A DNA stretch of 64,000 nt. Source: Amoebophrya sp. A120 (Eukaryota; Protista; Dinoflagellata). Location: positions 9,187,412-9,251,411 of the forward strand of contig CAJINV010000002.1 of the NCBI GenBank assembly GCA_905178155.1. The letters run 5' to 3'. The position numbers were made by a program, and so were the translations under genes. Positions 13,901 to 60,018 of this stretch are shown piece after piece. Position 1 is the first letter of the stretch. Each line of letters opens with the position of its first letter. The notes below the pieces were generated by a model. That model worked only from the letters and a program-made list of their open reading frames with translations, was not told the DNA's origin and searched no databases.

Positions 13901-15934
13901 GCCCCGTTGAGTCACATTTGGGGAAGATGTTCGGTGGGCCATGTCGTGTTCCACGGCTTGGCCCACCTTCACGTCCGGGGCGTGGCTCTGTGGGGTTTGA
14001 GAGCTTGGCTCGCGCGGCTTGCTACTTGTAGCTCGCTGTGCCGGCCGGGTTCTCTTCTTGCTCGCCAGTGTGACCGTCGCAGGGCGTCCCGCGACGAGGA
14101 CTGCAGCGCGCGTCAGCACTGCCTTCGATTATCATCGTTTCCGCGCGCTTTCGCTCGTTGGGTGAATTGCGCCAGGAATGTGAATTTATATAAGCAGCCA
14201 ATTGATTCTCTCTGCCGCACCACCACAGGCCGAGAACCGTCGCAAGCAGGTGGAAAAGATGTACCTGGAGGGCTGTGAAATGCGGGAGGAAGCGAAGCAG
14301 GTCCACGGGAAGATCGTGCAGGACCGCGCCCTCCGCGACGGCGAAATTGGCCGACTGAAGGCCCTGCAGCAAATGATAGAGCGGCAACGCTTGGAGCTGG
14401 TGCAGGACGCCAGTGTGCGCGTCGCCGGCGGCAATCCGTCCTCGCTGCAACCCGGGGGCGGCGGCGGGGGTGGTCACGGTCACGCACCCAGCCGGCTGAT
14501 GATGTCCCAACATCAGCAGATGACGCCGGGGCTCGTCATGCAGCAGCACCAGATGCCGTTCCATTCCACCGCGGGGTCGCTTTCTGGGGGAGGAGTCAAC
14601 GGTTTGGCCAACGACCTGCTGTCCAGTCCGCAGCTGCACTTCGGTCCGTTTCCCACCGCAGGGACCTCCTCCAATGGGGGAGGAGGTGGCTCTTCCTCTA
14701 GCACCCACGGGAGAACGATGAATCAGGTCGTCCCGCCGATCAAGAGCGCGCTGCCAAACAGCTCTTCGCAGAAGGAAACGCTGCAGCTCGTTTCCGGCAT
14801 CCACCCGCCATCTTCCGGCCGCAGCCCCGCGGGAAGCTCGGTGCTGGGTGCGCAGAAGCACTTGATCAGTATCGCGGAAAACGAGCTGAACAATGTTGAT
14901 CATGGGGGTGAACAAGTATCAAGTGCAAAAATGTCTGGGTCTGGAAGAATGCAAGCTTGTCATGCTTGTCGCACATGACTCTTGAATTTGTCATGCACAT
15001 TACCCAAGAGCCCCATTTTTCTGTCATGCAGAAACGCAGTTTGTCATCATGCAGAATAGGCAACACCTAGAAGCTCCGAAACTTGTCATGCTGAGCCAGC
15101 ACTTCTGGCCTCCTCATGATACGCCACCCAGCATCACAAGTTTCCAGACCCAGACACTCTTGCGTTTGATAACAAGGAGTAGATCACGACTTCGCGGAAG
15201 GAGCAGAACCACGCATCGACTCGATGCTTGGCAGTTACAAAAGCACGACCGGAGCTGCAGTAGTTGGTGCGCCGCCCATGATGGCCAGCAACGATGTTGA
15301 GGGCGGCCTCAACAACAACCAGACAATTTCTCCTGAAGATGTAGAAATGCAGATGCCTTTACTCGCAAGTACTAACGCCGGCGCGACCGCGGGAGTTCCG
15401 CTTACTGGCTCGTACCAATTCACGAAATACCACAACGCTGCGACCGCGGTCTCTTCCTCTTCATCTGCGGCCGATACGCTGTACACGAACGCGCTCGGGG
15501 CGTACGACAGGACGACGCTGCAGCAGCAGTTGCAGAAATGGACGTCCACTTCCGATGACGTGCGCGCGCAGATGAAACAGGCGAGCAAGCACATCCTTGG
15601 CGTCAGCGCGAATGGCGGGATTCTGACCGATCAACAAAGTGCTTTGGAGCAGGACCGGAACAACCTCAGTCGTTCAATCGTGCTCGAAACCAGCAGACTT
15701 GGGGTCGTGGGGAACAAAACGCCGATAAGAACGGGGAGTAAAAATGAGATCGGAGCATCAATCGAAAACAATAACAAATCCTTCATTTCGCTGGACAACG
15801 AGGATGCGGATGTCGAGCGGGGTCGTGCGTTGTTGAATTCCGTCGGCGGTGGGGGTCGAAATGCGAACGACCAAAGTTGGAACTCGTTGCACGACGGAAG
15901 CATGGCAAACTACGCGAATACCGGGACGGTATGA
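7913..15934 (+). CDS. FBF1: Fas-binding factor 1-like (centriole distal appendage/transition fibre) coiled-coil protein, 7 exons
   Basis: Phase-consistent exons 7913-8057, 8213-8727, 8876-10686, 10850-11203, 11369-11804, 14229-14916, 15177-15934 (five GT-AG introns plus one TIR introner). The N-terminal IDDILGDILEDD motif and the coiled coil ECERLKRQF...HQRQVQIIRESTEKEIETIRNSASSGVQINSLLERV...LREQGLDNREKMIRATEKQLQEQSKEVETQRKKMTDLINRMEAELAQQ resemble the FBF1 C-terminal domain as recalled. Confidence 0.7.
11805..14228 (+). other. Unusually long (2424 nt) GT-AG intron with GC-rich interior, probable mobile-element-derived insertion
   Basis: Donor AAG|GTAGTT at 11805 and acceptor CCACAG|GCC at 14228 join ELAEK to AENRRKQ in phase 0. 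The interior (about 11960-14180) is GC-rich, unlike the AT-rich 100-260 nt introns typical here. No recognisable protein domain. Confidence 0.7.
14917..15171. mobile_element. TIR introner, family A (divergent copy), 255 bp, TSD ACAAG
   Basis: Left end TATCAAGTGCAAAAATGTCTGGGTCTGGAA, right end TTCCAGACCCAGACACTCTTGCGTTTGATA. ACAAG at 14912-14916 and 15172-15176. Removing 260 nt gives E-Q-G-V-D-H, in frame with ORF 15224..15934. Confidence 0.92.
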
Positions 15935-57700: not shown

Positions 57701-60018
57701 CAAGCGAGGGTTGGAAGTTCATCTGTTTCCGCCTCCTCGACGCAGCAGAACCGAGATAGAATCCTGAGTGCGCCGATGTTTCACCAGCTCTACGCCTTTG
57801 CGAGGTTGAGCAGACACATTATCAGTGAGGAGGACGACGACGATGCGGCGGTTGGCGCGCAAAAGTCTGTGGTTTTGGAGCACTTTCGCGATCTGAAATT
57901 GCTTTTGGAGGAGAAAAAGCTTGTGCCGGCCTCTACTTCATCATCCGGCGGAGATGCAGAAGTCGCCCAGGATCTACTTGTTGGGAAGAAGAAAATCAGT
58001 CAGCTGCAAGGATCCACGATTCCGGTCACAGTGTCAGGCTTCGCTGCGAGTGCGCAGGAGCGGAAAAAGCTGCAAAAGTCGCTCACTGCCTTGACGTCCT
58101 GGTTGCGTGCGTGCGAGGAAGAATCGCATCAGCTTGGAACGAGTACGACAGCACAAAAAAGCAGCATTTCGATTTTTGAGAAACTGGAAAAGACTGTAAG
58201 CGAAGCCCTGCTAGTTGTGGACCAGCTTGTGACTGGACCTGGTCCTGGAAAAATAACAGATGCAAATAGCTCAGCAACTACGACATACAATCAAAACCAA
58301 GAACCAGAGTCGCAACCCGTACTACCCCGGCAGTGGGTGAAGATCGCAACGAACAATTTGAGTATTGCGCTACAACAAATGAACAACTTGAAGCCGGACA
58401 ATAAGAAACTACGAGAAGAGTTGGAGAAGTCGACGAATGAAAACAAGAAACTCTCCGCCCAAGTAGCGGACTTGCAGGGAAAAACGAAAGAGCTAGACCA
58501 ACAGGCCGCCAAGTTTTTCGTCAGCTCCGAGATCGGAGACATCGCGAAAACGGAGGTGGTATCAAGTGTAAAAATGTCTGGGTCTGGAAGAATGCAACTT
58601 GTCATGCTGTCTTTGGATTGCAAAAAAAATCTGTATTGCGTGACCAGCAACAGGAGTCCAGTTTGTGTTACGCGGAGAGGGTATTTCTCATGCGGAATAG
58701 GCAGCAGGAAGCCCTCTAAAATCTGTGATGTGATACCGCTCGTCTTAAAAAAGGCCTTTAGAATTTATTCCCATAGATACATATTCACAAGCGCTTAAGT
58801 AGCAATGCTAAGTTTTTTCCGATTTAGTTTTCCCGTAGAAGTTTACTTTACGAGGTAGCTTAGCATATACTGGCTTTAGTAGGCCTCTGAATGGCAAAGG
58901 GACGAACTGCCCGTAGACCTCCGATGTGATGCTAGATCATGCATTACATGCGTCATGGATCATACAAAATGTGCATCACAAATGCCGGAATCTTCCAGAC
59001 CCAGACATTTTTACAGTTGATAGGTGGTGCAACTGAAAAAGCAGCAAGCGGTGATGGAAAACGTATCCTGTGTAAAAACGTCTCCACACCAGAGTTGTAA
59101 TGCAGATTTGCAAAGAGAAAGACAGGAAGACTTGTAATGCGCATCCCCATGAGAGCCATTTCCAATCGTGTTTTGGAATTTGTGATGCTGTGAACAGGAT
59201 GAGCAGCTGGATTTGTGATGCGGCTGCACTTGCTAACCTGCACTACACTGCAGAGTGCAACTTGTCACGCGTGACTCACAAAACTCCTAGGTTTGTGTTG
59301 CAAAATCCCCATCCTGACTCTGGTGTGGGTACGTTTTTACTCAGGATAAAACGACCTGCAGATTCTGGTCGAGGAATCGAAAAAACTGGAGAAGAAATGC
59401 GTGAAAGCGAACAAGGAAAAAGAGAAATACACGAAGAAAATGGAGGAAATGGAAAACCAACTGAACGACTTTAGGAACAACCAAAAATCGAGCTCCGCGA
59501 AGGAAATTAGTGCGTTGAAGCAGTTGTGTGCGAAGTACCGCCGGGACCTGTACGGGGACAGGATGCAGAGGTTTCAGTCGAACTATTTGGTTGACCTCAT
59601 CTCCTCATCTTCTTCTGCCGATGACGCTGCGGGAGAAGGCGCGGGTGGCGACTTTGTGGGCGGCGGAAGCGATGCCAGTGGTGCGCAACTGAGGACTAAT
59701 CTTCAAGATATCGGTCCTCGGCAGGACCACCTCCTCCCGAATCTTCTCCAGCTGGCGAAAACAAAGTTAGTGGATTTGGAAAGGCCTCAAGATTGGATAG
59801 CAGACACGATTTCAAAAATCGATGACACTGCGACGTCGAAGGACCACAGGGAGCGGCTCCGCGGGACTACAGAACGCGCGCCGTCTCTGACCATTTGTTA
59901 CGAAAAGCCGTTTGCCAGCTCGTCTGTTGCAGAAGATGAGAACAAGACTCAGAAACTAATAGCTACTATACCTGACATCGTGCAATTACGAACTGAATTG
60001 CTGACGTTGCGAAGATGA
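54704..60018 (+). CDS. DCTN1: CAP-Gly domain coiled-coil protein, dynactin p150(Glued)-like, 8 exons
   Basis: CAP-Gly signature GQRVSV...GHVRYIG...[39 protein letters not shown], then a Ser-rich linker, coiled coil, helical domain and second coiled coil (p150 layout). Exons 54704-55046, 55273-55592, 55915-56119, 56261-56321, 56649-57004, 57102-58559, 59028-59063, 59354-60018. The CAP-Gly domain is secure; DCTN1 orthology is inferred from architecture. Confidence 0.7.
55593..55909. mobile_element. TIR introner, family E (degenerate), 317 bp, TSD ACGAG
   Basis: Left TATGGGAGCGTCAGGATTGAAATCGTCAAAGTT, right AACTTTGTGTCGATTTCAATCTTGACACATCCAGA. ACGAG at 55588-55592 and 55910-55914. Removal gives KAQNE-ELKKALKD. 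Confidence 0.85.
56322..56643. mobile_element. TIR introner, family D, 322 bp, reverse orientation relative to the 29530 copy, TSD AAGGA
   Basis: Left TATTGAGAGGAAATATCCCCCCTCCCCATATC, right GATATGGGGTGGGGGCTTTTTTCATTTTGATA. AAGGA at 56317-56321 and 56644-56648. Removal gives VLKK-E-LEKRDRE. Confidence 0.93.
58560..59022. mobile_element. TIR introner, family A, 463 bp including a nested insertion, TSD GGTGG
   Basis: Left TATCAAGTGTAAAAATGTCTGGGTCTGGAAGA, right TCTTCCAGACCCAGACATTTTTACAGTTGATA. GGTGG at 58555-58559 and 59023-59027. Removal gives KTEV-V-QLKKQQ. Confidence 0.95.
58731..58924. mobile_element. 194-bp insertion nested in the family A introner, 7-bp TSD TGTGATG
   Basis: TGTGATG at 58724-58730 and 58925-58931. 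Subtracting 194+7 bp from 463 gives 262 bp, the length of the 37899 and 39654 copies. No TIRs. Confidence 0.8.
59064..59348. mobile_element. TIR introner, family C, 285 bp, TSD AAACG
   Basis: Left TATCCTGTGTAAAAACGTCTCCACACCAGAGT, right ACTCTGGTGTGGGTACGTTTTTACTCAGGATA. AAACG at 59059-59063 and 59349-59353. Removal gives VMEN-D-LQILVEES. Confidence 0.94.

Follow-up and report, generated by a model that had tools for sequence, protein, structure and literature searches.

A helically spaced internal motif shared by introner families of Amoebophrya sp. A120: a putative subterminal DNA binding array

Introner elements of the window and of additional loci

The 64-kb stretch of Amoebophrya sp. A120 contig CAJINV010000002.1 analysed here (positions 9,187,412 to 9,251,411; hereafter the window) has a GC content of 50.9 %, carries its longest open reading frames (ORFs) on the plus strand, and harbours 12 introner elements of 235–463 bp each (3,568 bp in total; Table 1) with terminal inverted repeats (TIRs), whose shared internal motif is the subject of this study. 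An exon of the window (10638–11336) matches a protein labelled Amoebophrya sp. A120 with 100 % identity over 51 % of its length, which agrees with this strain or a near-identical one. Each of the 12 is flanked by an exact 5-bp target site duplication (TSD), and all start with TAT and end with ATA, apart from one AGA end. In silico removal of an element together with one TSD copy yields an open frame, clearly on the plus strand for 11 of them. All 12 fit five families (A–E), which comprise 8–152 members each among the 309 elements described below. They are the introner elements already described for A120 (PMC7789003). The published elements likewise possess TAT-start inverted repeats followed by seven variable bases and an A-run (PMC7789003, PMC12130899), short direct repeats and non-canonical boundaries, and the family lengths found here (262/252, 149, 307, 209, 322, 279, 109 and 216) lie near those of the published A120 table (PMC7789003/PMC12130899). 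The direct repeat is a strict 5-bp TSD directly outside TAT...ATA in the present set, whereas 3–5 nt at variable position are given in PMC7789003. The same source groups A120 introners into 1,954 families and states both spread and splicing of Amoebophrya introners as open.

The larger sample comprised 144 loci of one assembly in a metagenome collection, found by a scan with the family A TIR and amounting to 600 kb after merging of overlaps; together with the window, 664 kb were searched. Selection by this TIR over-represents family A, and statistics are family-weighted or use one representative per family. Elements were called by a 5-bp duplication and TIR pairing only, the motif and TAT remaining unused (368 calls). 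Calls within one mismatch of TAT..ATA were kept, and 57 of the 368 were removed as non-TAT (twenty of them in the region 38493–39557), as were three nested ones. The window element at 56322 fell below the TIR threshold and was added by hand. The final set contains 309 elements (12 from the window, 297 from the loci) in 17 families. TAT..ATA termini were present in 294 of the 368 calls, and a 5-bp TSD in 260 of 352 TIR-only calls, for which no duplication was required; a 6-bp TSD was found in none of the 309 elements and none of the 352 TIR-only calls. In a family-weighted logo, TAT reaches 0.96–0.99 at the termini and A 0.71–0.87 at TIR positions 11–15, the clean A-run being missing from the TIRs of families B and D. 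No match to the family A TIR was obtained in viral contigs.

Enrichment, conservation and spacing of the internal motif

A preliminary description of the window had proposed that a TGT[ACG]ATGC-like motif recurs within otherwise dissimilar introner families. The strict motif has 44 matches in the window, whereas 100 shuffles gave 5.99 on average and never more than 13. Of the 44, 37 fall within the 12 elements, where 0.9 were expected and none of 30 shuffles exceeded 3, and the remaining 60,432 bp contain seven, i.e. chance level. The 297 locus elements hold 932 matches compared to 19.7 in shuffles. Overall, the motif is present in 16 of the 17 families, and a de novo count of 8-mers is headed by TGTCATGC (13 families). 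The positions and copy numbers originally given hold: the element at 14917–15171 carries TGTCATGC at 14958, 14989, 15022 and 15084 plus GCATCACA at 15131–15138, and the TGT starts in 59064–59348 fall at 59096, 59133, 59181, 59214, 59263 (TGTCACGC) and 59294 (TGTGTTGC), spaced by 37, 48, 33, 49 and 31 bp. The proposed core was borne out, but the motif is longer than noted (approximately RATYTGTVATGCW, with a refined profile of 14.3 bits), and its position 4 is almost never T (no TGTTATGC in the window). The strict form is carried by 11 of the 12 window elements; the copy at 29530–29851 lacks a strict match and has only two relaxed ones. The reported colinearity of the elements at 14917 and 37899 is partial, since three plus-strand sites align, but identity amounts to 64 %, the site at offset 105 lacks a counterpart, and the right-end site lies at 33 versus 42.

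With a threshold of 8 bits for sites of the position weight matrix (PWM), four GT-AG introns (~750 bp) contained no profile site. Outside the called elements of the loci, the rate is raised, which is attributed to uncalled copies: 55 kb resembling known families contained 900 sites, and a further 264, half of them clustered, were located in the remaining 470 kb. Motif clusters, often still 31–33 bp apart, occur without recognisable TIR or TSD at three loci (L021, 13690–15890; L018, 2350–10100; L004, 430–2270) and probably represent old, degenerate introners. In several families, the TIR A-run and the bases after it (TIR positions 3–15) were considered as an outward-facing degenerate motif copy, a weak proposal: the profile score peaks at position 11, but only 2 of 17 families score high.

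Conservation was determined for 17 subfamilies covering 207 of the 309 copies. The motif core differs from the consensus at 291 of 6,659 positions (4.4 %), the spacers at 3,313 of 24,142 (13.7 %), and TIR positions 16–30 at 4.2 %. Neither of the two checks named in the preliminary description, enrichment over background and conservation relative to the spacers, refuted the motif. For the six subfamilies that have at least 14 copies each, 5.4 shared alleles per 1,000 site-copies were counted in the core, 4.9 in TIR 16–30 and 26.7 in the spacers, while private changes affect 1.8, 1.5 and 3.4 %, respectively. Relative to the spacers, the core is thus depleted fivefold in shared alleles and only twofold in private changes (Fisher p 5e-8), a pattern that fits selection on still-spreading copies and tolerance after insertion.

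Among one representative per family, 16 same-strand motif pairs lie 31–33 bp apart, distributed over 10 of the 17 families. Random placement gave a mean of 2.4 and a maximum of 8 such pairs in 5,000 draws, and in a look-elsewhere control no 3-bp spacing window reached 16 pairs in any of 2,000 trials. The linkers within these doublets are only 33 % alike between families, and with the motifs masked, interior similarity is left in a single family pair. The first inward site, examined at 26 family ends, is located 32–34 bp from the end in 11 cases, 40–44 bp in 11, 55–59 bp in three and 36 bp in one; the clustering of 22 of the 26 ends at 32–34 or 40–44 bp (R 0.70) was reached in none of 20,000 uniform draws and stays with one end per family (R 0.80, n 14). 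For all inward sites, the best-fitting period is 10.5 bp (R 0.47, versus 0.42 at 11 bp). Three turns of B-DNA correspond to 31.5 bp, and the doublets of 31–33 bp together with the end offsets represent a DNA-helix geometry. When viral contigs were searched for the doublet pattern, 56 single matches in varied context were obtained and read as chance.

Strand use, splicing and the putative reader of the motif

The coding frame is confidently interrupted by 183 of the 309 elements, in orientations of 97:86 (p 0.46) overall and 48:41 for the asymmetric family A (4.1 versus 1.5 sites per strand). Private core changes are equally frequent in sense (47/2220) and antisense (44/2000) sites, and likewise in frame-interrupting (91/4190; 2.2 %) and non-coding-like copies (19/1032; 1.8 %; p 0.63), the codon-model classification being rough and its power low. 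Sense and antisense sites number 515 and 446, respectively. Of the 183 frame-interrupting elements, 174 carry one or more sense copies near an end; nine have no sense site of at least 8 bits (best near-copies 4.6–7.4 bits; their splicing is presumed). A GT-AG register is possible in only 11 of the 183.

A 5.8-kb stretch of the window was compared to contigs of four runs from one sample, guessed to be RNA, none being on record as such. From one contig of 3,716 nt, three GT-AG introns are missing, as are all four elements located in the stretch, each gap measuring exactly the element length plus 5 nt (Table 1); a GT-AG register is available in only one of the four. Raw RNA reads (X11, X12) covered element ends only partly. 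At locus L065, an element with only a weak sense site, which appears to interrupt a gene upstream of RNA polymerase (RPB1) domains, was set aside, as the neighbouring exon looks duplicated.

The motif array is predicted to be bound, as a subterminal site on double-stranded DNA, by a single transposase or transposition helper protein common to the families, a reading to which a probability of roughly 0.64 is assigned. The helix geometry, the insertion in either orientation and the equal private mutation of sense and antisense copies argue for a DNA binding array rather than an RNA splicing code. The common trans-acting factor suggested in the preliminary description is therefore upheld as far as enrichment, conservation amid diverging spacers and a shared spacing across unlike families are concerned, while its notion of an unexplained "recognition code" for RNA splicing is disfavoured; from the listed candidates (transposase, RNA-binding splicing factor, chromatin protein), the evidence favours a double-stranded DNA binder tied to transposition. 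The candidate protein would occupy sites on one helix face, three turns apart and phased relative to where the terminus is cut. Copies keeping the array would go on being amplified, whereas those losing it would survive but stop spreading, so that spacers and outer TIR sequence could drift while the array stays and one mobiliser could serve many unlike families. On this view, the terminal hairpin and the slidable TSD, and not the motif, would underlie removal from the RNA. On the basis of earlier work, a retroviral-integrase-like (Ginger-type) DDE transposase is the probable enzyme, because a published integrase-like family of A120 has the same 5-bp TSD and TA/TA ends.

The proposed recognition of the motif in pre-mRNA by an RNA-binding splicing factor is considered very unlikely. 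The nearly universal sense copy near an end and a weak sense lean of families E (13:4) and 2 (10:4), together with the slight excess of sense sites, would agree with it; it is disfavoured because there is no overall strand preference, because private mutation is equal between sense and antisense and between coding and non-coding-like copies, and because of the nine elements without a sense site. In addition, a fixed spacing of 31–33 nt is hard to explain on single-stranded RNA. Still less probable is that inverted motif copies merely lengthen an RNA fold-back joining the intron ends. Predicted pairing across 57 elements is indeed higher in the core (0.76) than in the spacers (0.61), with 0.44 core-to-core, but this excess would be expected from inverted motif copies anyway; pairing demands complementarity rather than a sequence that is constant between families, the doublets are repeated in direct orientation, and in two families (E and the 109-bp family) the motif is essentially confined to a single strand.

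Instead of an RNA-level function, the array could serve splicing from the DNA: a host or domesticated DNA-binding protein, whose site may have begun as that of a transposase, would dock on the array within the gene and mark the intron for co-transcriptional removal. This alternative is unlikely, though less so than the RNA-level ones, and the same applies to its more specific form, in which a transposase-derived or host DNA binder brings a non-spliceosomal cut-and-join activity to the transcript while it is being made. Helical geometry and strand indifference are compatible with it, as are the private core mutation at half the spacer rate, the survival of doublets in degenerate regions, the rarity of a GT-AG register and the U1 snRNA of this organism, given as undetected in PMC7789003. 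If true, it would explain the precise removal, in either orientation, of tens of thousands of non-GT-AG introns without detectable U1 snRNA. On the other side, private core mutation is no lower in frame-interrupting copies (within the limits of the rough classes and low power mentioned above), and site number and layout vary widely, from 0–2 strict copies to six or more. A functionless relic of common descent or internal duplication is very improbable and largely refuted: TAT-N7-A-run ends and a 5-bp TSD in all families do point to probably one ancestor, but conservation of the core exceeds that of the spacers threefold within the 17 subfamilies, and almost no interior similarity persists once the motifs are masked.

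Several observations weigh against the transposition-linked binding array. Neither the 29 ORFs of the window nor 119 of 131 locus ORFs revealed a transposase, the latter giving no rve or DDE match, and no long ORF-bearing element was found, six of the longer TSD-bounded stretches holding filler or neighbouring elements (longest ORF 151 codons); nor was an autonomous element sharing ends and motif found in the 664 kb. Passages of PMC7789003 report putative transposases in strain A25 only and none in A120, and argue against general mobilisation by a transposase. Doublets persist in degenerate regions without recognisable ends, and the twofold private gap between core and spacers could reflect host selection, or otherwise sparse sampling of master lineages. 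The sense lean of family E has a p of 0.049 (uncorrected), and the four asymmetric families pooled show 72:51 (p 0.07). Finally, first-site offsets alone cannot tell a period of 10 from one of 11.75 bp, and the families are not fully independent, as ancestry is common and two share sequence; in elements with a long TIR, left and right ends are moreover linked.

One conserved site that is helically spaced and common to the families would imply a single mobiliser for the TAT/5-bp-TSD class, and the motif may serve as bait for pull-downs and as signature for finding the autonomous element, pointing to the integrase-like fam38 type (see below) as candidate. The splicing problem would be narrowed to terminal hairpin and TSD. 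For annotation, the 14-bit profile should be useful for spotting old, degenerate introners.

Relation to known systems and further features of the locus

Subterminal repeats bound by transposase are known from MITEs (miniature inverted-repeat transposable elements), hAT, CACTA and Tc1/mariner (PMC1636448), and the MITEs and DNA transposons treated there (Emigrant/Lemi1; hAT, CACTA, Sleeping Beauty, pogo) also have repeated internal motifs, direct and inverted, near their ends. Like MITEs, the introners described here are short and non-coding, possess TIR and TSD, and keep an internal repeat conserved above the surrounding interior. Unlike in MITEs as presented in that source, one motif extends across many families with unlike TIRs and interiors and is only loosely TIR-related, it is helically spaced, the elements double as introns, and binding is predicted from sequence. 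The family fam38 of A120 (808 bp; PMC12130899), labelled Ginger, has Copia/Gypsy-like ORFs between its TIRs, and shares the 5-bp TSD and TA/TA termini with the present introners, as compared by its published label only. The TA..TA termini of IS3EU/GingerRoot elements match as well, but their usual 6-bp TSD does not (0/309); for Ginger2, a TSD of 4–5 bp is given (PMC10045372).

Tn7 ends carry spaced arrays of TnsB sites that differ between left and right, together with a 5-bp TSD (PMC11406308), as is the case here; they are bacterial, however, with TGT/ACA ends and 22-bp sites, in contrast to the TAT/ATA termini of the introners. No TnsB homologue was seen among the ORFs examined, and the likeness is an analogy only. 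The non-conventional introns of Euglena (PMC12501133) are slidable, flanked by direct repeats, non-GT-AG and paired at their ends, as are the introners. Mutation has shown their code to be a CAG-CTG motif located within a few bases of the junctions, whereas the present motif is placed 30 or more bases inside and has no overall strand preference. The shared motif, the doublet spacing and the phasing appear to be new, the elements themselves being already known; none of the three features was found in literature searches, including text passages of PMC7789003, PMC12130899, PMC11282704 and PMC12501133.

Table 1 Introner elements and control intron in the window (+ and -, motif strand)
Feature	Coordinates	Strand	TSD	Motif sites and remarks
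Introner, family A (diverged)	14917..15171	.	ACAAG	+ 14958, 14989, 15022, 15084; - 15138; removal with one TSD restores + frame
Introner, family B	19626..19860	.	TCGCA	strict + 19669, 19766; PWM sites 42 and 137 bp from right end; host strand not confidently called
Introner, family C	21409..21728	.	CGCAT	+ 21453, 21485 (32 bp apart); - 21591, 21643, 21675
Introner, family C	29530..29851	.	GGAGC	strict motif lacking; PWM sites at offsets 43, 76 (33 apart), two on -; interrupts long + ORF (1490 + 450 codons)
Introner, family A, orientation opposite to 37899	37187..37459	.	TCCGG	strict + 37261, 37301; - 37284, 37418
Introner, family B	37571..37822	.	GAAGG	+ 37623, 37716; - 37675, 37770 (52 bp from each end)
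Introner, family A	37899..38160	.	TCCGA	+ 37939, 37970 (31 apart), 38024, 38063; - 38086, 38118 (32 apart)
Introner, family A	39654..39915	.	ACCGC	+ 39725, 39779, 39818; - 39873
Introner, family D	55593..55909	.	ACGAG	strict + 55807; - 55748, 55861; skipped as 322 nt (length+5), contigs of 4/4 runs
Introner, family C, inverted relative to 29530	56322..56643	.	AAGGA	+ 56377, 56409 (32 apart), 56493; - 56567, 56600 (33 apart); skipped as 327 nt, 3/4 runs
Introner, family A, ~200-bp internal filler	58560..59022	.	GGTGG	+ 58600, 58632, 58925; - 58948, 58980; skipped as 468 nt, 4/4 runs
Introner, family E	59064..59348	.	AAACG	six + copies: 59096, 59133, 59181, 59214, 59263, 59294; skipped as 290 nt, 4/4 runs
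Control: canonical GT-AG intron, spliced in same contig	57005..57143	+		a single strict 8-mer (57103), context poor; PWM sites >=6 bits absent

Three copies of family A (58560–59022 in the window; L065, 11017–11988; L042, 3862–4492) contain 200–700 bp of unrelated filler, which is bounded by short duplications overlapping the motif (TGTGATG in the window), similar to gap-repair capture; the filler-bearing window copy of 463 bp is still skipped precisely. Between 38493 and 39557, a GC-rich fold-back region of ~1 kb with GGTACC- and CACATC-type repeats and long inverted arms was observed, which has neither TAT ends nor the strict motif and was left out of the element set.

Very long ORFs without Pfam match are located at 146–7345 (2,400 aa) and, extending across one introner, at 25059–31205 (1,490 + 451 aa). 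A homologue search with the host exon at 57143–58558 gave no match. The stretch 5336–16883 of locus L065 encodes domains of the RNA polymerase largest subunit (Rpb1) and contains nine called introners, one of them of 972 bp; an exon near 5982 appears duplicated near 7000. In the window region 44500–54300, contigs of runs X1 and X3 display numerous clustered substitutions and increased depth, which suggests that paralogous gene copies exist elsewhere in the genome. An internal short run of TTTAGG(G)-like units at ~51690–51715 resembles the telomere repeat reported for Amoebophrya A120.

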